64,000 nt of DNA from an uncultured beta proteobacterium (lineage in GTDB: Bacteria; Pseudomonadota; Gammaproteobacteria; Burkholderiales; SG8-39): the NCBI GenBank assembly GCA_903899705.1, contig CAIUKQ010000192.1:103-64102 (forward strand), written 5' to 3'. A program made the position numbers and the translations under genes. Positions 1,476 to 13,485 of the stretch are shown one piece after another; within the stretch, counting starts at the first letter, position 1, and every line of letters starts with the position of its first letter. The notes beneath the pieces are model-generated. The model was given only the letters and a program-made list of their open reading frames with translations, did no database searches and was not told where the DNA came from.

Positions 1476-2662
1476 AAATCGTCAGGTTCGAGGACTTTTC
1501 CACCTATGGCGGCTGGGAAAACTTTTCGTTTTTGAAAGTCACCACCGACGAGGGCGTCATCGGCTGGGCGGAATTCAACGAAGCCCGCGGCCGCAAGGGA
1601 CTGACCGGCCTGATTCACAGCCTGGGCGAAGGGCTGATCGGCGAGGATCCCCGCAATATCGCGCGCATCGACGCCGTGCTGTATGCGCAGACTCGCTCGA
1701 CCACGGGCGGCCTGCAATCACATGCCATGGCTGCCGTCATCAATGCGTGCCTGGACATCAAGGCCAAGTCACTTGGGGTGCCGGTCTACGAATTGCTGGG
1801 CGGTGCGATTCGCGACCGCCTGCCGGTGTACTGGTCGCATTGCGGATTTTTCCGTGCGCGCTACGCCAACCTGTTCGACGGCAAGGTGATCCCGAGCCAG
1901 GCGGTGCGCACGCTGGATGACATCCGGCAGGTTGGCCGTGAAGTGCGCGAGCGCGGCTTCAAGGCCCTGAAGACCAACCTCGTGATTTTCGATGCCAAGG
2001 GCGCGCGTCCCTACAGCCCGGGATTCGGGCGAGGCGCCGGAGCGCCGGAGCTGAACATCTCCGATGAAATCACCGATGCGTTTGTTGCGCAACTCTCGGC
2101 ATTCCGGGACGGGGCCGGACCGGGCGTGCGCATGATGGTGGACCTCAACTTCAACTACAAGCCCGAGGGGTTGCGGCGGCTTGCCCGGGCGGCCGAGCCC
2201 TTCAACCTCATCTGGCTGGAGATGGATCTGTATGAACCGCGTGCGCTGGCCGGCGTGCGCGAGTCGACCTCCACGCCGATTGCATCGCTGGAGGCCATCT
2301 TCGGCCGGCGCAGCCTGAGACCTTATCTGGACAATCATGCCGTGGATGTCGCCATCATTGACGTCCAGTGGAACGGCATGGTGGAGGCGATGCGCATGGC
2401 CTCGATGGCCGATTCCTACGAGGTGAACGTGGCCTCGCATTGTTCCAGCGGCCCTTTGTCGACGCTCATCAGTTCACACTTCTGTTGCGCCATCCCGAAT
2501 TTCCGCATCATGGAAGTGGATGTTGACGAAGTGCCGTGGCGATCCCAGTTGCTCACCAAGCCCTACAAAATCGAAAATGGCGAGTTCCACATACCTGTAG
2601 GTCCGGGTTGGGGGGCGGACATCAACGAAGAGGTGGTCCGGGCTCACCCCGCCAAGGATTGA
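1472..2662 (+). CDS. Enolase-superfamily enzyme (mandelate racemase/muconate lactonizing family, dehydratase-like)
   Basis: Starts MKIVRFEDFSTYGGWENFSFLKVTTDEGVIGWAEFNE, with ...LDIKAKSLGVPVYELLGG typical of the MR/MLE N-terminal domain. ORF-track ORF 1328..2662 was trimmed to the ATG at 1472, which overlaps the upstream TGA (ATGA). Confidence 0.8.
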   Translation: MKIVRFEDFSTYGGWENFSFLKVTTDEGVIGWAEFNEARGRKGLTGLIHSLGEGLIGEDPRNIARIDAVLYAQTRSTTGGLQSHAMAAVINACLDIKAKSLGVPVYELLGGAIRDRLPVYWSHCGFFRARYANLFDGKVIPSQAVRTLDDIRQVGREVRERGFKALKTNLVIFDAKGARPYSPGFGRGAGAPELNISDEITDAFVAQLSAFRDGAGPGVRMMVDLNFNYKPEGLRRLARAAEPFNLIWLEMDLYEPRALAGVRESTSTPIASLEAIFGRRSLRPYLDNHAVDVAIIDVQWNGMVEAMRMASMADSYEVNVASHCSSGPLSTLISSHFCCAIPNFRIMEVDVDEVPWRSQLLTKPYKIENGEFHIPVGPGWGADINEEVVRAHPAKD

Positions 2663-2676
2663 TTTCATAAAATCTG

Positions 2677-3645
2677 ATGAAAAACAATAACTTATTGTAT
2701 TTTCTCGGTGCGTGGTCGGTGGTTCTTTCGGTATCTCCGGTGCTCGCGCAAAGCTATCCCGAGAAGCCCATACGCGTGATCATTCCGTTTGCCGCGGGAG
2801 CGGGGTCCGACATTACCGCGCGCCTTGTCGCCAATGACATGCAGCAGCGCCTCGGCACGACGCTGGTGGTGGACAACCGTCCCGGTGCCAACGGCATGCT
2901 TGCCGCGGAAACCGTGGCGCGCGCCGCACCCGACGGCTATACCTTGTTCTTCACCACGGTATCGACGCAGGCGGCGAATCCCAGTTTGTACAAGAAGTTG
3001 CCCTATGACCCGATCCGGGACTTCACGCCCGTCGGCAGAATTTCCCTCAGCCAGCATGTGCTGGTGGTGCATCCCTCGGTAAAGGCTGCGAGCGTGCAGG
3101 ATCTGGTTCTGCTTGCGAAAGCGCAACCGGGCAAGCTCTCCTATGCGACGTCGAATGCCGGGTCGCTCGTGTCCGCAGAATGGCTGAAGGCCATGGCTCA
3201 GGTGGACATCGTTGGCGTACCCTACAACAGCAACCCGACCGCGCTCACTGATCTTATAGCGGGGAGAACACAGGTGATGTTCCCGGACCAGAATTCGGCG
3301 ACGCCCCACATCAATGCCGGGAAGTTGCGGGTACTTGCGGTGACAGGATTATCCCGGTTGACGACGTTCCCCGAGGTGCCCACCATGGAGGAGGCCGGAT
3401 TCAAGGGTTTCACCATCAATGTCTGGAGTGGCGTGTATGGCCCTGCGAACATGCCGCAATCAATTGTTCAGCGATTGAGTGCGGCGCTTGATGCAAGCCT
3501 CAGGAATCCGGCGACACTGGAGAAATTCGCGACAGCGGGGAGCGTGCCGTCACCGCTCAGCCCGGAGCAGTTTGCACAGTTCGCGCGTTCGGAGCTGGAA
3601 GTGTGGAAGCGGGCCATCGCCGCTGCAAGAATCGAGTTGCAATGA
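2677..3645 (+). CDS. Bug-family (TctC-like) tripartite tricarboxylate transporter substrate-binding protein
   Basis: Signal peptide followed by AQSYPEKPIRVIIPFAAGAGSDITAR, and an LSYATSNAGS motif. About 320 aa, as is typical for Bug proteins. Confidence 0.9.
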   Translation: MKNNNLLYFLGAWSVVLSVSPVLAQSYPEKPIRVIIPFAAGAGSDITARLVANDMQQRLGTTLVVDNRPGANGMLAAETVARAAPDGYTLFFTTVSTQAANPSLYKKLPYDPIRDFTPVGRISLSQHVLVVHPSVKAASVQDLVLLAKAQPGKLSYATSNAGSLVSAEWLKAMAQVDIVGVPYNSNPTALTDLIAGRTQVMFPDQNSATPHINAGKLRVLAVTGLSRLTTFPEVPTMEEAGFKGFTINVWSGVYGPANMPQSIVQRLSAALDASLRNPATLEKFATAGSVPSPLSPEQFAQFARSELEVWKRAIAAARIELQ

Positions 3646-3673
3646 TCACGCGTCGTTATGAGGTACATGCCGG

Positions 3674-4672
3674 ATGAATCCAATGCCCGTATTCAAGGTC
3701 ATCGCGCTGGCGGCGGCGCTGTTGTCGCCCCTAAGCCTTTCCGCGCAGGAACGTCTGCGCCAGGCAACCATCATTGTCGGATCGCCCGCCGGCGGGGCCA
3801 CCGACAAACTCGCGCGCATGTATGCCGATGCCCTTAAGCAGCGCTTCGCCAATACGGTGATCGTCGAGAACCGGCCCGGTGCCGGCGGCATTCTCGCTTA
3901 TGAGTATGTGAAAAACAGTCCGCAGAAGGACGGGAGCATCACCTTCCTGTCGCCCGCCTATCCACTGACCATATCCCCGCACGTGGTGCGCAACCTGCCG
4001 TATGACACGCTGAAGGATTTCATGCCGGTGGGCATTGCCGCGCGCTCGACCATGACCTACGCCGTGGGTCCGGCGGTACCCGCGAACATCCGGACCATGG
4101 AGGCTTATCTGCAGTGGTGCCGCGACAATCCCAAGCAGGCGTTGTACGCCGCGCAGACGGGTTCCAGCCAGCACCTGCTGGGATCGATTCTGGCGCTGAC
4201 ATCCAAAGTCAGGCTGGAGAATGTTTCTTACAAAGGCGATGCGCCCGCCATGCAGGATCTGCTGGGAGGTCATATCCCGGCCGTGGTGCTTCCCATCGCC
4301 AGCGCGATTCCCATGCACAAGGCCGGCCAGATTCGCGTGCTGGCGGTCGCGTCTGCCAAACCGTCCCGCTACCTTCCCGATATTCAGACTTTCCAGGACA
4401 TGGATTACAAGGACATTCTTTTTCAGGACTGGCTGGGCGTGTTCGCGCCGGCGGGCACGTCGCCCGAGGCGGTGCGGCAGATGAATCTCGCCATGGCGGA
4501 TGCCGCGCGATCCGAGCAGGGGCAGGCGGCCCTCACCAATCTGGGATTTACGCCGGAAATCGTGACGCCGGAGGTGTTCGCAGAACTCGTTCGCGCGGAT
4601 TACCGGCGTTACGGCGTTCTGGTCGAGCGAACGCGCTTTCGGGAAACCTTCGAAAAATCATCGGGACAATGA
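3674..4672 (+). CDS. Bug-family (TctC-like) substrate-binding protein
   Basis: Signal peptide followed by ATIIVGSPAGGATDKLAR...VENRPGAGG and a Bug-like C-terminal half. Confidence 0.85.
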   Translation: MNPMPVFKVIALAAALLSPLSLSAQERLRQATIIVGSPAGGATDKLARMYADALKQRFANTVIVENRPGAGGILAYEYVKNSPQKDGSITFLSPAYPLTISPHVVRNLPYDTLKDFMPVGIAARSTMTYAVGPAVPANIRTMEAYLQWCRDNPKQALYAAQTGSSQHLLGSILALTSKVRLENVSYKGDAPAMQDLLGGHIPAVVLPIASAIPMHKAGQIRVLAVASAKPSRYLPDIQTFQDMDYKDILFQDWLGVFAPAGTSPEAVRQMNLAMADAARSEQGQAALTNLGFTPEIVTPEVFAELVRADYRRYGVLVERTRFRETFEKSSGQ

Positions 4673-5526
4673 ACATGCAGACAGCCAAGGCCATGCGCAG
4701 TCAATCTCCGGACCAGCCTGATGTGCGCGTCCGGCGCATCACCACCCATGTTGGCGCGGAAATCCAGAACGTGGACATTTCACAGCCGCTGTCGCCTGAA
4801 AACGCGCGCAGGGTGCGACAGGCGCTGGTTGAGCATGGCGTGATTTTCTTTCGTGACCAGAACCTGAATTCACCCCAATACGAAGCCTTCGCCCGGCAAT
4901 TCGGCGAAGCGCTTCGGCCCAAGAGCAATTTCATTCCGGAACTTGCGGGCTCCGAGGTGATTGCCGAGGTGCGCAAGGACGAAGGCCAGGAAAAGAACAT
5001 CGGCGGTGGCTGGCATACCGACCAGGTATTTCGCGCGGCCCCCAGTTGGGGAACCATGCTGTTATGTCGCGAGATTCCCGAGCACGGCGGCGATACGCTG
5101 TTCCTGTCCATGTCCGAAGCCTATGAACGACTGTCCGTTGGGTTGAAGAAAACCCTGGAGACGCTGCGCGGGGTTCACTGGAATGCGGCAGTGCAGGCAC
5201 GCATGCAAAGCGGCAAAGCCCCGGATCCTGCGGTGACACACCCGGTGGTGATTCGCCATCCTGAAACCGGCAGGAAGATTCTTTACGTCAGCCCCAGCTA
5301 CACCACGCACTTCGAGGGCTGGACCGAGGCCGAAAGCCGGCCGCTTTTGCAATATCTTTTCCGGCACGCGGAAAATCCGGAATGGACCTGCCGCTTTCGA
5401 TGGGAAAAAGGTTCGATCGCCTTCTGGGACAACTACCAGACCTGGCATTTCGCGGTGAATGACTACGACGCCGGTGAGCGGGTGATGCATCGCATTGTCG
5501 TCAACGGCCCGCCATTCGAGCGATAG
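4669..5526 (+). CDS. Taurine dioxygenase-like Fe(II)/2-oxoglutarate dioxygenase (TauD/TfdA family)
   Basis: Contains WHTDQVF (HxD), GGDTLFLSM and IAFWDNYQTWHFAVNDY motifs. ORF 4114..5526 was trimmed to the ATG at 4669, which overlaps the Bug gene stop (ATGA). Confidence 0.85.
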   Translation: MNMQTAKAMRSQSPDQPDVRVRRITTHVGAEIQNVDISQPLSPENARRVRQALVEHGVIFFRDQNLNSPQYEAFARQFGEALRPKSNFIPELAGSEVIAEVRKDEGQEKNIGGGWHTDQVFRAAPSWGTMLLCREIPEHGGDTLFLSMSEAYERLSVGLKKTLETLRGVHWNAAVQARMQSGKAPDPAVTHPVVIRHPETGRKILYVSPSYTTHFEGWTEAESRPLLQYLFRHAENPEWTCRFRWEKGSIAFWDNYQTWHFAVNDYDAGERVMHRIVVNGPPFER

Positions 5527-5735
5527 CCTTGTCCCTGCGGCAAATCGTTTTTGACGCGGCCGGCATGCTGACGGAATTTTTTGAATGGGGATGGATTCTA
5601 AAATCGCGACATGAAACGGGAGGGGCCGGCCCCGGATGATTGCGAAAAGGCGGGATATTTGCCTTCTGATCGTCCTCAAGTTTCTCGATGCCACCGGAAT
5701 AATGCGAATGAGCCCACTCCATCAAGGAGATTCGC

Positions 5736-8549
5736 ATGAGTGCACTTCCAGTTTCCCTCGCCTATGACGCAGACCACACCTCTGGGGATGGCAAGCCGCC
5801 CACATTGGCCGCGATCAAGGACGCCATGGCCCGGATGGAGGCGGAGAGTCGGGCCTCGGTGACGCTGGAGGCGCGCACCGTGGTGGAGACGCGCGCACGC
5901 GCCGTTGCGGAGACCCGGGCGCGGACCGAGCAGGAGGCCCTGCGCATGGCGGAGCAGCGCATGGCGGCTGAAACGCGGACCGAAGCTCTGGCGTGCGAAC
6001 GTCTGGCCATGGAGCAGAGCGCGCTGACCGATGCCCAGGCCCGCGGCAATGCCGAGGCCGAACGCTTCAACGAGGCCAGGCTGCGCGCTGAGGCCGAGGC
6101 GGAAGCCGCCAAGCTCGCCGTTGCGCGCCTTCAGGCTGAGCAGGACGCACGCTGCGCCGCGCAGGCCAAGGTCCGCGATGAAGCGCAGGCAACCGGCCGC
6201 AGCCGGGCCCTGGCCGAAGAGCAGGAGCGACTGCGCATTGAAATGCTGGCGCTGGTTGAGGAGCGTGAACACGAACTGGCAACCGCACGCGAAAAAAGCG
6301 AATCGCGCGCGGAGACCACCCGAAAGACCATCGAAACGACGCGCCTGCGCGCACGCTTGGAAGAAGCCGCGGTGCTGGAAGGTCTGGAGCGATTGGCGTC
6401 CGAAACCCGAGCCCGCGAAGAAGCGGAAACACTGCTGCGCCGGGAACAGCAGTTGCGCCAGGCAGCCGAAAACCGGGCGCGTGCCGATCGTGAGCTGGCC
6501 GAGGTCGTGGAAACCGCCGCACGCGAGGAAACCACCGCGGAAGAGCGCGCCAAGGCGCGCGTGAATCTGGAGCAAAAAGCGCATGCGGCGCTGCGCCGGC
6601 GCATCGACCTTGAGGGGGAACTGGAGCGCGCGGCGCTGGAACGCATTACCGACGAGGAGCGCGCAGCAGCAACTTCGGAGCAGCGCCTGGAGGCCGAACA
6701 ATCCCTGCAGCAGCAGATCGATGCCCGCTACGCGGCCGAGCGCCATGCTCTGGAGCTTGCCGAGCAACGCATTCGCACCGAGGCAGATTCGGCGCGACTG
6801 GCGCGTATCCGGGCCGACGCCGAAATTGCCGCGCACGAGGCGGCAGAAAGGCGCAAGGATGTGGAAAACGAATTGCTGCGGGAGTGTGAGCGGCGCCGCG
6901 AGATGGATGAACTCGCCCGCCAGTCGGTGTCGGCGCGCCTGACGGCGGAACAAGAAGCCGCGGAGCAGGCCCAGGCGCAAAGTGTCGCCGAAGAGCGACT
7001 TGCTGCGGCCGCCCGGGCCATCACCGTAACCAAGGCGGCACAGTCCGAAGCCATCCATCAGAGAGCGGAAAAGGAAGAGCAGGCCGAGCGCGAAGCGGCT
7101 TTGCGCGTGCAACTGGAGCAGGCGGCACTGGCGGCGGCCGAAGAGCGACGCTCCCGGGAGGCGGCCGCATTGCGCGAAACCGAAATCCGGATGGCCAGGG
7201 ATGAGGAAGCCAGTCGCGCAGCCGAGCAAACCCGCATTGCCCAGGAACAGGCGGGCGCAGCGGCCAGGGAGAACCGGCTCGCCGAAGAAAATGCCGCGAT
7301 CCAAGCCAGGGCGCTTGAGGAAGTGTCCCGGGAACAGGCGCTCGCGGCGCGCAAGCGCGAAGCGAAGGACGCTGAACTGGCGGCAGCGGCAATGGCGCGC
7401 CGCGACGCGGAAACCGTCGCGATGCAGCAGGCCGAAGCAAAATTGCTGGCGGAACGCGCAGCCGAGGCGGCAGTGCACGCACGCAGCGAGGAAGAAAGGC
7501 GCGCCGAACGCCTTGCAAAGATGCGTGAAGCTGCAGAACGCCGCTCGCATGCCTTGCTGGTCGAAGCCGCGGCCGCCGATGCCCAATGCCTGATGGCCAC
7601 CCGAAAACGCTCGTTGGTGGCGCGCCGGGAGGGGCTTGTTGCGGCTGAGCGCGAGCGCGAGGAACTGAAGGCGGCAAAGGCGGCCCAGACGCGCCTGGAA
7701 GCCGATGTCCGATTGATCGCCCAGGCCAAGATCCGCGTGCATGTCGAGAGCACCGAAGCCGAGCGTGCGCGGCAATTGGCGGAATCACAAAGGGACGCGA
7801 CGGCCGCTATGGCCAAGCAGGCGGCCGAGGAGAAGATCCGGATCGCCGCGTATGTCGCGGTGCAGGCTGCGGCGGAACAGCGCGCCAGGGCTGAAAGCGA
7901 GGCAGTGGCTGCGGCGCGGGAACGGATCGCGGCGGAACGCGCCATGCGCGAGGCCGGGGTGCAGCGCAGGTCCGCGCACGCTGAGGCGATGCAGATTGCG
8001 CTGAAATGCAAGGAATCGGAGGAACAACTGGTCGCACTGAACGGCGAACGGATCCGTGCTGATGAACAACACCTGGAATTGACGGCCAGACTGGCGGAAG
8101 AACAGCAAAACCTGATCGAGGCCGCGAATGGGCGCGCGCGGACGGCATCTGATGCGGTCGATGCGCTGTCCGAAAGAATAGAAGCAGAGCGCGAAGCTGC
8201 GCTTTCCGAAAAGCAGCGCCTTGCCGCGGAACGGGAACTCGCAAAGCGCGAACGTCAGATTGCGGACTTGAACATTGAATCCGGCCTTCGGGCCGGCGAG
8301 CGGACGAAATCTCTGGCCGCACGACTGCGCCGCAGCATCATGCGCCCGCTTATGGCCTTTGCTGCCGGCGGATGCATGGCGGTCACCATTCTGGGATTTC
8401 TCTGGGCAGTTGAATTGGCCGGGACGCAGGGCAACAGTGCGCAGGGGGTGCTCCGCACTGCCGAGGCCGTCGCGCCGCTGGTTGCTGGACTGCATTCGGG
8501 AGTCGATTCACTTTCGCTGAACCTGTCCCAGGGTCTGGCGGAAAACTAG
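5736..8549 (+). CDS. 937-aa Ala/Glu/Arg-rich coiled-coil protein with one C-terminal transmembrane segment (tail-anchored); function unknown
   Basis: AAGGAG lies 6 nt upstream of the ATG. About 865 aa of A/E/R/Q-dominated sequence follow, then the hydrophobic segment IMRPLMAFAAGGCMAVTILGFLWAVELAG (nt 8337-8423) and a 41-aa tail. Long antisense ORFs here are compositional artefacts. Confidence 0.7.
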   Translation: MSALPVSLAYDADHTSGDGKPPTLAAIKDAMARMEAESRASVTLEARTVVETRARAVAETRARTEQEALRMAEQRMAAETRTEALACERLAMEQSALTDAQARGNAEAERFNEARLRAEAEAEAAKLAVARLQAEQDARCAAQAKVRDEAQATGRSRALAEEQERLRIEMLALVEEREHELATAREKSESRAETTRKTIETTRLRARLEEAAVLEGLERLASETRAREEAETLLRREQQLRQAAENRARADRELAEVVETAAREETTAEERAKARVNLEQKAHAALRRRIDLEGELERAALERITDEERAAATSEQRLEAEQSLQQQIDARYAAERHALELAEQRIRTEADSARLARIRADAEIAAHEAAERRKDVENELLRECERRREMDELARQSVSARLTAEQEAAEQAQAQSVAEERLAAAARAITVTKAAQSEAIHQRAEKEEQAEREAALRVQLEQAALAAAEERRSREAAALRETEIRMARDEEASRAAEQTRIAQEQAGAAARENRLAEENAAIQARALEEVSREQALAARKREAKDAELAAAAMARRDAETVAMQQAEAKLLAERAAEAAVHARSEEERRAERLAKMREAAERRSHALLVEAAAADAQCLMATRKRSLVARREGLVAAEREREELKAAKAAQTRLEADVRLIAQAKIRVHVESTEAERARQLAESQRDATAAMAKQAAEEKIRIAAYVAVQAAAEQRARAESEAVAAARERIAAERAMREAGVQRRSAHAEAMQIALKCKESEEQLVALNGERIRADEQHLELTARLAEEQQNLIEAANGRARTASDAVDALSERIEAEREAALSEKQRLAAERELAKRERQIADLNIESGLRAGERTKSLAARLRRSIMRPLMAFAAGGCMAVTILGFLWAVELAGTQGNSAQGVLRTAEAVAPLVAGLHSGVDSLSLNLSQGLAEN

Positions 8550-8711
8550 GGAAAGTTCATCCCGGCTGGGTTCGACAATAACCCGACCCAGGTAAGCCGC
8601 AAATCCTTAATCCGAACCGAAACTTGATGGGAATAGGACAGATTCCTGTCATATTGGGACGATTGCGAGCTCTGGTAGAGCGTTTCAGGCCTCAAACCGC
8701 GCAATAGGCGC

Positions 8712-8740
8712 TTGACACTGTTATTGTGCAGCGCAATAAT
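8712..8740 (+). promoter_or_regulatory. Candidate sigma70 promoter of phaC with an embedded palindromic operator
   Basis: TTGACA (8712-8717), a 17-bp spacer, then AATAAT (8735-8740). The spacer and -10 carry the inverted repeat TTATTGtgcagcgCAATAA (8721-8739). A further GCGCAATA half-site sits at 8699-8706. Confidence 0.5.
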
Positions 8741-8796
8741 TATCTCGGTAATGATGCCTGAGGCCATATTGATTAACCCTAATCTCCGGAACCACC

Positions 8797-10536
8797 ATGT
8801 CCGATAGCAGCCCCGCGGGTTTTGATGTTCTGGTCAAGGCCGGGCAGGCAGCGTTTCAACAGTTTCTCAATGCCTGGGCGGCACAGTCGGCCGGTGCCGG
8901 TGTCGTGCCTGAGGCTTCCCAGCAGGGCCATGGCCCAGACGCCAAGCTCGCAGCACTTCAATCCGACTATTACCAGAAGCACCTAGCTCTGTGGCAGTCA
9001 TTCCTTGCCGGAGGTGGTGAACAGGGGGTGCCTGCGCAGGCGCAACCGAGCAAGGGCGATAGACGGTTTTCAGGATCGGAGTGGGCCGCAAGCCCTTATT
9101 TTGATTACATCCGCAAGTCCTACCTGCTGAATGCGACCTACCTGACCGAGATGACGCATTCGTTGCCCTTCGATGGCAAGAGCAAGGATCGCCTTGAATT
9201 CGCAACACGCCAATTCATCGACGCCATGAGCCCTGCGAATTTCGCGGCGACCAACCCCGAGGTGCTGAAACTGGCACTCGAATCCAATGGCGAGAGTTTT
9301 ACCCAGGGAATTCATAACCTTATCGAGGACATATCGAAGGGCCGGGTCTCCACCACGCGGGAATCGGAGTTCGAGGTGGGCCGCAATCTGGCCATCACCG
9401 AAGGCAAGGTTGTATTCGAGAACGAACTGATACAACTGATCCAGTACGCGCCGACTACTGCCGAGGTGTACAAACGGCCGCTGGTGATGGTGCCGCCCAG
9501 CATCAACAAGTACTACATCATGGACATGACGCCCGAGTCGTCATTGGTCCGCTTTGCCGTCGATCAGGGGCATACGGTATTTATGATTTCCTGGCGCAAT
9601 ATCACCGGCGAACAGGGGCAGATGACTTGGGATGATTATCTTCGCCTGGGGGTGATGGATGCCATCGATGCTGCGGCTGATATTTCGCGCTCGGACAAAG
9701 TCAATGTGCTGGGATTCTGTGTTGGAGGCACCATTCTCGCCTCGGCGCTTGCGGTACTCGCAGCCGAAGGCGACGACAGGATTTCGAGCCTCACGCTGCT
9801 TGCCACTATGCTGGATTTTTCAGATCCCGGCGAACTGGGCATATTCATCGACGAGCAGAATGTCGCTGCCCGCGAGGCATCGATCGGTTCCGGTGGCGTG
9901 CTTCCAGGCAAAGACCTGTCCGTCGCATTTTCATCTCTGCGAGCCAACGACATGGTCTGGTCCTATGTCGTCAACAATTATCTGAAGGGCAAGCAGCCGG
10001 ACGCCTTCGACCTGCTGTACTGGAACGGTGACTCGGCCAATCTGCCCGGACCGATGTATTGCTATTACCTGCGCAATACCTACCTCGAGAACAATCTCCG
10101 CGTTCCCGGCAAGCTTTCGATGCTGGGTCAGAAGGTCGATCTGGGCTCCATCAAGGTGCCTGCGTACGTTCTGGCGACGCGAGAAGACCATATCGTTCCC
10201 TGGAAAACGGCCTACCTCTCGCGCGATCTTCTGGGCGGGCAGAGCCGTTTTGTACTGGGTGCAAGCGGGCATATTGCCGGGGTTATCAACCCGGCCTCCA
10301 AGAACCGCCGCAGCCATTGGGTAAGCGACAGGAAAGTCGCTGGAAAACCCGTGAAGGATCCGGAAAGCTGGCTTCAGACCGCGACAGAGATTCCCGGAAC
10401 TTGGTGGATAGACTGGGCGCAATGGCTCCCCAAGTTTGGCGGTGCGAAAATCAAGGCGAAAAAAGCGTTAGGCAACAAATCCTACCCACCCATAGAACCT
10501 GCACCCGGCCGTTACGTAAAACAGAACATCGCATAA
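8797..10536 (+). CDS. phaC: Class I poly(3-hydroxyalkanoate) synthase
   Basis: 579 aa with the lipase-box-like GFCVGGT (active-site Cys). Immediately followed by thiolase and reductase genes. Confidence 0.95.
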   Translation: MSDSSPAGFDVLVKAGQAAFQQFLNAWAAQSAGAGVVPEASQQGHGPDAKLAALQSDYYQKHLALWQSFLAGGGEQGVPAQAQPSKGDRRFSGSEWAASPYFDYIRKSYLLNATYLTEMTHSLPFDGKSKDRLEFATRQFIDAMSPANFAATNPEVLKLALESNGESFTQGIHNLIEDISKGRVSTTRESEFEVGRNLAITEGKVVFENELIQLIQYAPTTAEVYKRPLVMVPPSINKYYIMDMTPESSLVRFAVDQGHTVFMISWRNITGEQGQMTWDDYLRLGVMDAIDAAADISRSDKVNVLGFCVGGTILASALAVLAAEGDDRISSLTLLATMLDFSDPGELGIFIDEQNVAAREASIGSGGVLPGKDLSVAFSSLRANDMVWSYVVNNYLKGKQPDAFDLLYWNGDSANLPGPMYCYYLRNTYLENNLRVPGKLSMLGQKVDLGSIKVPAYVLATREDHIVPWKTAYLSRDLLGGQSRFVLGASGHIAGVINPASKNRRSHWVSDRKVAGKPVKDPESWLQTATEIPGTWWIDWAQWLPKFGGAKIKAKKALGNKSYPPIEPAPGRYVKQNIA

Positions 10537-11802: not shown

Positions 11803-12609
11803 ATGGACATGGCAGTGGGAAAAGACATCCAGGCTCGCGAAGGGCAATCCCCTTTATCCAACAAGAATGCGCGCCAACTCACCGCCCTGGTAACCGGCGG
11901 AATGGGTGGCATCGGCAGTGCGATCTGTTCGCGGTTGGGGAAAAGCGGTATCCGGATTGTTGCGGGCTGCCTTCCCGGCTATGCCAAAAAAGACGAGTGG
12001 CTGGCGCAGATGAAGGAACAGGGTGTGATGGCGCACGCGGCCGAAGGGATGGTCGATGATTACCAAGCCTGTGTTCGCATGGTTGGCACCATCCGCGAGG
12101 AAGTGGGCGAGATCGATATCCTGGTCAATAATGCCGGCATCACCCGCGACGGTTTTCTCAAGAAAATGACGCCAGAAGACTGGTATGCCGTCATCAACAC
12201 AAACATGAACAGCGTGTTTAACGTCACGCGTCAGGTGATCGAAGGCATGTCAACGCGGGGCTGGGGCCGGGTGATCAACATTTCCTCGGTGAACGCCATC
12301 AAGGGCCAGTTCGGGCAAACCAATTATTCGGCCGCCAAGGCAGGCATGCACGGTTTCACCAAGGCACTGGCCCAGGAAGTGGTTCGCAAGGGAGTCACTG
12401 TCAACACCATTTCCCCCGGCTATGTCGAGACCGACATGACCCGCGCAATCAAGCCCGAAATCCTGCAATCCATCATCGAGCAGATTCCCATGGGACGCAT
12501 GGCTCGACCCGAGGAAATTGCCGGCCTGATCGCCTACCTGATCTCTGACGACGCAGCCTACATAACCGGCGCCAACATGTCGATCAATGGTGGCCTGCAC
12601 ATGATGTAG
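11803..12609 (+). CDS. Acetoacetyl-CoA reductase paralog (SDR) with a ~22-aa N-terminal extension
   Basis: Contains TALVTGGMGGIGSAI, NNAGITRD and YSAAKAGMHGFTKALA (YxxxK). It is preceded by an unusually AT-rich spacer. Confidence 0.85.
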   Translation: MDMAVGKDIQAREGQSPLSNKNARQLTALVTGGMGGIGSAICSRLGKSGIRIVAGCLPGYAKKDEWLAQMKEQGVMAHAAEGMVDDYQACVRMVGTIREEVGEIDILVNNAGITRDGFLKKMTPEDWYAVINTNMNSVFNVTRQVIEGMSTRGWGRVINISSVNAIKGQFGQTNYSAAKAGMHGFTKALAQEVVRKGVTVNTISPGYVETDMTRAIKPEILQSIIEQIPMGRMARPEEIAGLIAYLISDDAAYITGANMSINGGLHMM

Positions 12610-12741: not shown

Positions 12742-13485
12742 ATGGCAAAGCGAGTGGCATTGATTACCGGCGGGATGGGCGGACTGGGCGAGACCATAAG
12801 CACCAAGATGGCGGATGCCGGCTACAAAGTGGTGGTCACCTATTCGCCTTCCAACAAGACCTCCAATGAGTGGCTCGCGCAAATGAAAAGCCGGGGGTAC
12901 GAGTTCAGCGCCTATCCCTGCGATGTCGGTGATTTCGATTCCTGCAAGGCCTGCGTGGAAAAGGTGTCCCGGGAGGTCGGTCTGGTCGACATACTGGTGA
13001 ACAACGCCGGCATCACCCGTGACGTGACGTTCAAGAAAATGACCAAATCCGACTGGGATGCGGTGATGCACACCAATCTGGATTCGGTGTTCAACATGTC
13101 CAAACAGGTGTGCGATTCCATGGTGGAACGCAATTGGGGGCGCATTATCAACGTGTCCTCGGTGAACGGCTCCAAGGGTGCCTTCGGGCAGACGAATTAC
13201 GCGGCTGCAAAAGCAGGCATGCACGGTTTCACCAAGTCCTTGGCGCTGGAAGTCGCGCGCAAATGCGTCACGGTCAACACCATATCGCCGGGCTATATCG
13301 GCACCAAGATGGTGACGGCGATCCCAAAGGAAATTCTCGATACCAAGATCATTCCGCAGATTCCGGTGGGTCGGCTCGGCCAACCTGAAGAGGTGGCGGG
13401 CCTGATCATTTACCTGTGCTCCGAAGAGGCTGCTTTCGTGAATGGTGCCAATATCGCCATCAACGGTGGCCAGCACATGCAATAG
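12742..13485 (+). CDS. phaB: Acetoacetyl-CoA reductase
   Basis: 247 aa starting MAKRVALITGGMGGLG, with NNAGITRD and YAAAKAGMHGFTKSLA. A GGGGGGAG SD lies upstream. Confidence 0.9.
   Translation: MAKRVALITGGMGGLGETISTKMADAGYKVVVTYSPSNKTSNEWLAQMKSRGYEFSAYPCDVGDFDSCKACVEKVSREVGLVDILVNNAGITRDVTFKKMTKSDWDAVMHTNLDSVFNMSKQVCDSMVERNWGRIINVSSVNGSKGAFGQTNYAAAKAGMHGFTKSLALEVARKCVTVNTISPGYIGTKMVTAIPKEILDTKIIPQIPVGRLGQPEEVAGLIIYLCSEEAAFVNGANIAINGGQHMQ

Follow-up and report, generated by a model that had tools for sequence, protein, structure and literature searches.

What is a bacterial protein of 937 residues for that consists largely of alanine, glutamate and arginine, and does it matter that its gene precedes the one for a polyhydroxyalkanoate (PHA) synthase? 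The question is raised by a stretch of 64,000 nucleotides from an uncultured beta proteobacterium of the Burkholderiales (GenBank assembly GCA_903899705.1, contig CAIUKQ010000192.1, positions 103 to 64,102 of the forward strand), which as a whole is here called the window. The gene in question, hereafter the rod gene, lies directly upstream of phaC. An original prediction, made from the letters of the DNA, took its product for a membrane-anchored cytoplasmic filament or tether and speculated on a relation to granules of poly(3-hydroxybutyrate) (PHB). From sequence comparisons we conclude that the protein belongs, as a divergent member, to an unnamed family of rods built from a 14-residue repeat, and that it has a C-terminal anchor of its own.

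The composition of the protein was easily verified. Alanine makes up 24.5% of the residues, glutamate 16.3%, arginine 14.0%, leucine 9.2% and glutamine 5.9%. Proline is found only at positions 5, 21, 22, 871 and 914, which leaves residues 23–870 free of it; residues 23–866 include 11 glycines, and the only aromatics among them are F111, Y332 and Y706. The count bears out the original prediction, which had described some 835 residues without proline, with little glycine or aromatics and with a dominance of A, E, R and Q. What had been overlooked is that the rod is a repeat. The autocorrelation of charge at lag 14 amounts to 0.28, as compared with 0.00 ± 0.035 in shuffled sequences, which corresponds to about 8 standard deviations; further peaks are seen at 28, 42 and 56. 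Identical residues recur at lag 14 with a frequency of 0.229, while 0.139 is expected. A cyclic profile of 14 states, fitted to residues 23–866 with a heavy penalty on register jumps, reaches 429 bits and needs only 3 register shifts, which fall at 191, 689 and 851. With a lighter penalty the fit scores 434 bits, versus 273 ± 15 for shuffled rods fitted alike. The consensus has alanine at positions 3 (36%), 4 (59%) and 10 (43%), arginine at position 7 (70%), glutamate or aspartate at position 11 (73%) and alanine or leucine at position 14 (73%). Seen as two heptads, the unit has arginine alternating with alanine or leucine at a and alanine at d, and a glutamate stands four residues after each arginine. 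This consensus accounts for the twofold excess of R(i)→E(i+4) pairs in the rod (68, with 31 expected); the count for the opposite orientation, E→R at i+4, is 35 versus 31. A period-2 signal of alanine and charge was considered as a separate feature and rejected; it is the 7th harmonic of the 14-residue repeat.

AlphaFold2 (AF2) predicts helices for residues 24–263, 268–429, 437–628 and 636–850. About 39% of the rod residues are charged, and an Ala/Leu seam runs along the rod in heptad register. The rod is probably an alanine-rich helix that is stabilised by salt bridges and pairs weakly with a partner helix. We propose that the protein is structural and not an enzyme. A catalytic or nucleotide-binding motif had not been recognised before, and none of the libraries searched contained a matching family of that kind.

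The relatives of the protein are found by the beginning of the rod. A scan of metagenomes by C-terminal patterns revealed none. Among 1.84 billion representative proteins scanned with HMMER there were only 6 matches, all of them short fragments of the clade or the family, each an N- or a C-terminal end. A profile of the N-terminal ones led to incomplete sequences annotated as “hypothetical protein” in Massilia horti, M. arenosa and a Paucibacter metagenome-assembled genome. When metagenomes were searched for the motif A[IM][AN]R[VM]EAE[AST], at least 145 loci were confirmed, of which 80 were fetched. This motif marks the start of the rod, 25–100 residues from the N-terminus, is followed by RA..E repeats, and is present in the window protein. 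A hidden Markov model (HMM) built from 64 relatives, from which the window clade was excluded, matches the start of the rod in the window protein with 35.5 bits, and none of 1000 shuffled sequences was reported. Among 11,546 open reading frames (ORFs), the family HMM matches only the window clade and the loci L084 and L085. In the reverse direction, a 14-mer profile trained on the window protein scores 20 rods of classes A and B (see below), as well as those of L004 and L086, at 7–21 standard deviations above their own shuffles. The lag-14 autocorrelation is 0.12–0.29 across all members tested, and the signature of arginine followed by glutamate at i+4 is common to all of them. Window protein and family thus agree in the rod start, AI+xAxARxEAExxA..., and in a 14-residue repeat that sets R and E at a distance of four residues. 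A further common trait is the head peptide, which is acidic and variable and includes a short alternating hydrophobic motif. In the window protein this alternating hydrophobic/acidic motif is SLAYDAD; its counterparts in relatives are SLAYNAD, LTLAYDAS, LSVAHDAA, SLTVAYSADDEF and LSMGAYALD, a recurrence that was judged by eye and not scored statistically. The family is widespread in Burkholderiales and unnamed, and it had escaped the original prediction.

Two classes can be distinguished. Members of class A have about 750–840 residues, lack a transmembrane (TM) helix and end in ...LTREVLGRFK...; at about 60 loci an APH-family kinase gene is found just upstream, which is 70–81% identical to that of Massilia. 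The idea that LTREVLGRFK is an amphipathic membrane anchor was dropped, as its hydrophobic moment ranks 14th to 195th of about 800 windows. Class B (13 loci) comprises proteins of 1170–2000 residues with a C-terminal TM helix (mean Kyte-Doolittle hydropathy over 19 residues, KD19, 1.5–2.4) and a tail of 28–69 residues with LQMSYALS-like motifs. The window protein has the order of rod, TM helix and short tail in common with class B; at the C-terminus nothing beyond this layout, and an alternating motif in the tail, is shared. The window clade differs from class B by its own anchor and tail, by the missing W..RAE.VLAE.P in front of the TM helix, by its length of 937 versus 1170–2000 residues and by its neighbouring genes.

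The surroundings of the class B genes have a pattern of their own. Upstream, 9 of the 13 loci have a pair of genes, one for a giant Ser/Thr-kinase-AAA_16-GAF-His-kinase protein of 1749 aa and one for a hybrid kinase/receiver with DUF3369. Downstream, a TPR/NTF2-like (Cds6_C) protein and a YkuD L,D-transpeptidase (Cds6_C) are encoded in 6/13, an exopolyphosphatase in 3/13. The conserved neighbourhood is seen in L113 (2262–9625 and 13685–16173), with equivalents in L124, L131, L133, L134 and L158, while in L140, L148 and L149 Ppx/GppA replaces the TPR and YkuD genes downstream of the class B gene. Homologs of these neighbour genes are absent from the 64-kb window.

Some other family loci deserve mention. 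L084 (471–905) encodes a complete protein of 144 residues, P0007, with the family head and rod start (51 bits with the family HMM). It lacks a long rod, which implies that the N-terminal module can sit on a short protein; its gene adjoins one for a Methyltransf_4 (TrmB-type) methyltransferase. The class A gene is truncated by the end of its contig in the draft genomes of both M. horti and M. arenosa (L088 10001–10236; L089 10001–10225). Short-read assemblies may be prone to break at genes of this family, which in consequence may be under-counted in databases.

The membrane segment of the window protein had been described correctly: the single hydrophobic helix and the 41-residue tail behind it were found again, and the protein contains no other hydrophobic segment. 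The 15 residues in front of the helix carry a net charge of +4, the tail one of −3. Hydropathy reveals neither a signal peptide nor a hydrophobic segment at the N-terminus of the 937-aa protein. The positive-inside charges, the one C-terminal helix and the missing signal peptide together predict a tail-anchored rod with its N-terminus in the cytoplasm. The helix contains a conserved AFA[AS]G[GS]C, in which the spacing is small-xxx-small and Cys880 is invariant, and is preceded by RLRRSIMRP; AFA[AS]G[GS]C and the motifs of the tail are kept in 5 sequences. A GlyGly-CTERM or PEP-CTERM sorting signal was looked for in NCBIfam without a match; a signal peptide is missing and the tail that follows the TM helix is acidic. 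The last 100 residues of the rod protein, with TM helix and tail, reappear at 63% identity in P0003, a 183-aa ORF of L082 (547–1098), fused to an N-terminal part that by eye, no domain search having been run, resembles the Jag/KhpB type. As its contig is only 1.1 kb long, P0003 may represent either a true fusion or a chimera of the assembly.

Close orthologs are known from three further contigs of uncultured Burkholderiales, L081, L086 and L004, which together with the window make up the window clade. The contig of L004 ends within the ortholog, for which the final 480 residues show 48% identity in amino acid sequence; the ortholog of L086 (GCA_009693475.1) is 65% identical, once a 4-nt deletion near codon 73 is repaired. 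Conservation is unevenly distributed along the rod (Table 1), and residues 201–250 seem to be richer in leucine (LEGLERL, ETLLRREQQL), an impression by eye and not a measurement. Since the L086 ortholog lacks a segment of 76 residues, and a part of the rod within the approximate range of residues 415–560 is missing from that of L004, the length of the rod evidently varies among close relatives.

Table 1. Features of the rod gene, its product and the adjoining phaC region, in window coordinates
Feature	Position	Strand	Basis or remark
Shine-Dalgarno sequence AAGGAG	5721..5726	+	6 nt before ATG of rod gene
Complete ORF, 937 aa + stop	5736..8549	+	ATG 5736, stop 8547–8549
N-terminal head peptide, residues 1–23, predicted disordered	5736..5804	+	Predicted local distance difference test (pLDDT) 33–35
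Alpha-helical rod, residues 23–866, about 60 degenerate 14-residue repeats	5802..8333	+	Periodicity, cyclic profile, AF2
Family-defining rod start, residues 24–74 (LAAIKDAMARMEAESRA...ETRARAVAETRA)	5805..5957	+	HMM from 64 metagenome relatives, 35.5 bits
Best-conserved part of rod, residues 201–400	6336..6935	+	84–96% identical to L086 ortholog vs 65% overall
76-residue segment, residues 502–577, absent from L086 ortholog	7239..7466	+	Alignment
Single hydrophobic helix, residues 868–896, core 874–892	8337..8423	+	Kyte-Doolittle 19-residue mean 1.93
C-terminal tail of 41 residues, predicted periplasmic	8424..8546	+	Conserved G[LIV]H[SV]G, alternating strand-like LSLNLS
Sigma-70-like phaC promoter TTGACA-17-AATAAT	8712..8740	+	Context only, not part of protein
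phaC, class I PHA synthase	8797..10536	+	TIGR01838, 701 bits

That the rod gene is real and conserved can be stated plainly. The ORF of 2.8 kb and its good Shine-Dalgarno sequence are as they had been described, and an ENA contig of 53.9 kb has the same protein among its gene calls. Over 2041 nt, L081 and the window align without a gap at 95.6% identity. Within the rod ORF the differences fall on codon positions 1, 2 and 3 in the ratio 13/11/28; 24 of the changed codons are synonymous and 25 non-synonymous, with a rough ratio of non-synonymous to synonymous substitution rates (dN/dS) of about 0.35. For phaC the corresponding counts are 14 synonymous versus 6 non-synonymous changes. The annotated frame is the one with most synonymous changes, with one antisense frame close to it (23 vs 24). 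An antisense ORF of 699 aa indeed runs across the rod gene (5676–7775, − strand), and on the ENA contig a gene caller placed a further minus-strand ORF of 73 aa (window 8546–8767) in the spacer between rod gene and phaC. Both look like by-products of base composition, long antisense ORFs being a result of the GCN, GAR and CGN codons in which the rod gene abounds. Exact DNA repeats had been denied, and TRF indeed finds nothing meaningful; direct repeats do not exceed 27 nt and are imperfect and dispersed. The rest of the window is ordinary chromosome, with RNase E, UvrB, FabF, rpoE-mucB-degQ-lepA and an RND pump.

None of the named families accommodates the protein. Pfam, NCBIfam, PHROGs, PADLOC and the PDB sequences contain no match, in line with the original prediction; the libraries include models of TolA, FimV and SMC proteins, which also remained silent. 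As neither PHROGs nor PADLOC responded, a role as phage tape measure or in defence was rejected. Foldseek of the AF2 model against the PDB produced generic helical hairpins only, with E > 0.8, tblastn against plasmids nothing, and a literature search on tail-anchored bacterial coiled coils, coiled-coil proteins of PHB granules and 14-residue repeats nothing relevant.

Several known systems are nevertheless instructive. TolA is anchored by its N-terminus, spans the periplasm and ends in the globular domain III. Its domain II is likewise a long helix rich in Ala, Glu and basic residues and attached to the inner membrane. However, the N-terminal anchor, the periplasmic span and domain III are all missing in the window protein, the sole hydrophobic helix of which has its core at residues 874–892 and not at the N-terminus; there is no TolA match in Pfam or NCBIfam. 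Nor is there one to FimV/HubP, which combine a periplasmic LysM domain with a central TM helix and a C-terminal FimV motif. For SMC or MukB-like proteins no SMC_N, AAA or hinge domain was detected, and both termini are short peptides. Phasins (PhaP, Phasin_2) gave no Pfam match at E ≤ 0.01, and the protein has 937 residues and a TM helix. DUF883 (ElaB/YqjD) was not matched in Pfam. ElaB, YqjD and YgaM of E. coli, which represent this family, resemble the window protein in having a helical cytoplasmic N-terminal part and a single C-terminal TM helix, but with about 100 residues and the TM helix at the extreme end they differ from a protein with a rod of 845 residues and a tail of 41. Crescentin, FilP/Scy, PodJ and TipN are long helical rods, too, and act as scaffolds or landmarks; PodJ even shares the order of cytoplasmic coiled coil, one TM helix and periplasmic end. 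In contrast to them, the window protein has the 14-residue R/E unit, an Ala-rich core and no periplasmic domain beyond 41 residues, and sequence similarity to them did not show up in any search.

How might such a protein work? The rod would extend into the cytoplasm and be held in the inner membrane by its C-terminal helix, with the tail in the periplasm. The small-xxx-small motif and the invariant cysteine of the membrane helix would fit a dimer, the rods pairing probably via this motif and via the conserved segment 201–400. Fully extended, the rod would measure about 125 nm (845 residues × 0.15 nm); 4 predicted helix breaks would permit it to fold back. Anchor and tail could fix one end at the envelope, while the N-terminal motif and the segment 201–400 might bind partners. 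That the protein is a tail-anchored cytoplasmic rod and serves in this way as a membrane-anchored spacer or tether has, in our opinion, about an even chance of being right. Of the original idea of a membrane-anchored filament or tether, the architecture has been strengthened by the AF2 model, in which residues 24–850 are almost entirely helical, by the one TM helix and by its positive-inside charges; the tethering function is what such an architecture would suggest.

Some observations weigh against this picture. The AF2 model was built from a single sequence and is of low confidence (pLDDT 61; predicted template modelling score, pTM, 0.25), its C-terminal 90 residues are unfolded and both ends are unmodelled. 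Hydrophobic power at period 3.5 is only about 6, and L, I, V, M and F together reach about 18%; with so weak a heptad signal, a stable coiled coil of the leucine-zipper type is not established. The hydrophobic helix of the L086 ortholog has a KD19 of just 1.45. In the same contig the 4-nt deletion (around 10210–10215; it aligns to window 5915–5918) splits the gene into ORFs of 93 and 770 aa. The split is seen in three assemblies (ENA, NCBI, Logan), all of them possibly derived from one read set; it could mean a real pseudogene, the gene being dispensable there, or an assembly error. An HMM of the class B C-terminus (W..RAE.VLAE.P, TM helix and tail) scores 7 bits on the window protein, no better than block shuffles. 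This is not significant, and a common origin of the two anchors was therefore rejected. Finally, membrane anchoring cannot be a trait of the entire family, since the larger class A has no TM helix.

Other explanations have to be weighed against the spacer or tether. The simplest would be that the ORF has no function at all, having arisen by chance in GC-rich DNA or being a pseudogene in decay. Long ORFs are open on both strands, the L086 copy has its frameshift and dN/dS is higher than that of phaC. This would, however, leave unexplained a frame kept for 2.8 kb in the window and for 2.3 kb in L086, as well as in the available parts of L004 and L081, a good Shine-Dalgarno sequence, the bias of substitutions towards the third codon position, motifs at both termini that survive at 48–65% identity, and relatives at no fewer than 145 loci; we regard the idea as most improbable. 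A protein of the TolA, FimV or adhesin type that spans the periplasm or is secreted might be suggested by the composition, which seems to resemble that of the helical domain II of TolA. Lacking an N-terminal hydrophobic or signal segment and any TolA, LysM, FimV or autotransporter domain, and with its positive charges on the N-terminal side of the sole hydrophobic helix, the window protein is very unlikely to belong there. More consideration is due to a monomeric single alpha-helix, a spacer of the ER/K kind instead of a coiled coil. The richness in Ala, Glu and Arg, the twofold enrichment of R(i)→E(i+4) pairs and the weak hydrophobic heptad signal are what one would expect of it. Described ER/K helices, however, have a far higher content of charged residues than the rod, where moreover only one orientation of the ion pair is enriched and Ala/Leu positions keep the heptad register; nor does a motif of the dimerisation type in the membrane helix suit a monomer. 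Such a helix is therefore rather unlikely, yet it has to be kept in mind. An envelope or cell-shape scaffold, i.e., a cytoskeleton-like rod with a periplasmic tail coupled to proteins that remodel peptidoglycan, is suggested by the relatives: the genes of the TPR and the L,D-transpeptidase proteins, both with Cds6_C, just downstream in 6 of the 13 class B loci, the sensor-kinase pair upstream in 9 of them, and, in the window protein itself, the conserved strand-like tail. The remaining class B loci have different neighbours, though, class A has no TM helix, homologs of the class B neighbours are not encoded in the window, and between the tail of the window protein and the class B tails no homology can be detected. 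Here, too, we see a minor chance.

This leaves the proximity to phaC. The rod gene was said to be co-oriented with the PHA synthase operon and to end about 250 bp in front of it; the distance is 247 bp, on the same strand, and phaC is followed by phaA, SDR, phaB, phaR, rimO and bktB. One could imagine that PHB granules, or PhaC itself, are tied to the inner membrane by the rod, or that the rod spaces the granules, in functional coupling with the pha operon. No terminator was detected between the genes, and the adjacency is kept throughout the window clade, in each of its 4 assemblies, even where protein identity falls to 48%; one may add, as an anecdote, that the exopolyphosphatase downstream of 3 class B relatives is another enzyme of storage granules. 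However, phaC has a strong promoter of its own, and in the next-closest phaC loci, L001 and L002 (PhaC 74% and 71% identical), clpB is located directly upstream of phaC. Of 80 phaC loci, L004 is the only one in which a relative, or indeed any ORF rich in A/E/R/Q, is present; up to 10 kb on each side of the other 79, the family HMM finds no member. Conversely, homologs of PhaC, PhaA, PhaB or PhaR occur within 10 kb of none of 82 family loci (0/82). A phasin domain was not matched either. The 12-nt motif GCAMMAAWTMMD, taken here as the PhaR box, has 4 matches in the window, at 10472, 22794, 33500 and 39640, with 0.8 expected; one of them lies inside phaC, none near the rod gene or the phaC promoter, and none in a pha promoter region. 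The link to PHB, which had been derived from the position of phaC, has thus for the most part not withstood the comparison of gene orders: the adjacency is confined to one narrow clade. We treat it as a lineage-specific gene order, not as evidence of function, and the PHB link as positional only. A tether or organiser of PHB granules is accordingly quite unlikely.

A few details of the region may be added. In L001 clpB occupies positions 2176–4815, in L002 positions 10–2526. In the window clade the order of genes leading to phaC is ABC transporter, TauD, 2-hydroxyacid dehydrogenase, MR/MLE, two TctC, TauD and rod gene. The region upstream of phaC has evidently been rearranged, as L001 and L002 have clpB where the window clade has the block with the rod gene. 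Between phaA and phaR the window contains two genes of short-chain dehydrogenases/reductases (SDR) in tandem, one for a 268-aa SDR (11803–12609) and one for a PhaB-like reductase of 247 aa (12742–13485). The first of them is split in L086 into ORFs of 70 and 199 aa.

To return to the membrane-anchored spacer or tether, its nearest functional analogy would be the tail-anchored golgins of eukaryotes, which are unrelated. Golgins such as giantin and golgin-84 consist of a long rod with a C-terminal TM anchor, a short lumenal tail and an N-terminal motif that captures cargo. Long helical rod, C-terminal anchor with short tail and a short conserved motif at the N-terminus are also what the window protein offers, but this is analogy only: there is no sequence relationship, and the domain of life, the membrane and the pathway of insertion differ. 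If pursued further, the analogy would make the 14-residue-repeat rods a new class of bacterial tethers for organelles or cargo, fixed by one end at the envelope, the N-terminal peptide of which would capture a cytoplasmic structure up to about 100 nm away, in this lineage PHB granules or PhaC. Such a cargo would explain why the position next to phaC has been retained. We mention the idea as a long shot.

Long helical rod proteins organise the shape, the polarity and the positioning of organelles in bacteria; they are mostly lineage-specific and are missed by domain databases. Neither long helical rods nor tail-anchored proteins are new as kinds of bacterial proteins. The family itself, its 14-mer repeat of R and E and its two anchoring classes, however, are not represented in Pfam or NCBIfam, and the literature search brought up no description of them. 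For those working on pha genes the finding calls for caution: the gene upstream of phaC is here not a conserved component of the pha cluster, and a link to PHB is possible only as a lineage-specific function. For the biology of Burkholderiales it means that a sizeable family, with at least 145 metagenome loci and members in cultured Massilia and Paucibacter, has so far had no entry in Pfam or NCBIfam. Its signature is simple, an N-terminal motif plus the R/E 14-mer repeat, and it comes with two modes of anchoring. Since cultured hosts exist, deletion and localisation work is feasible.

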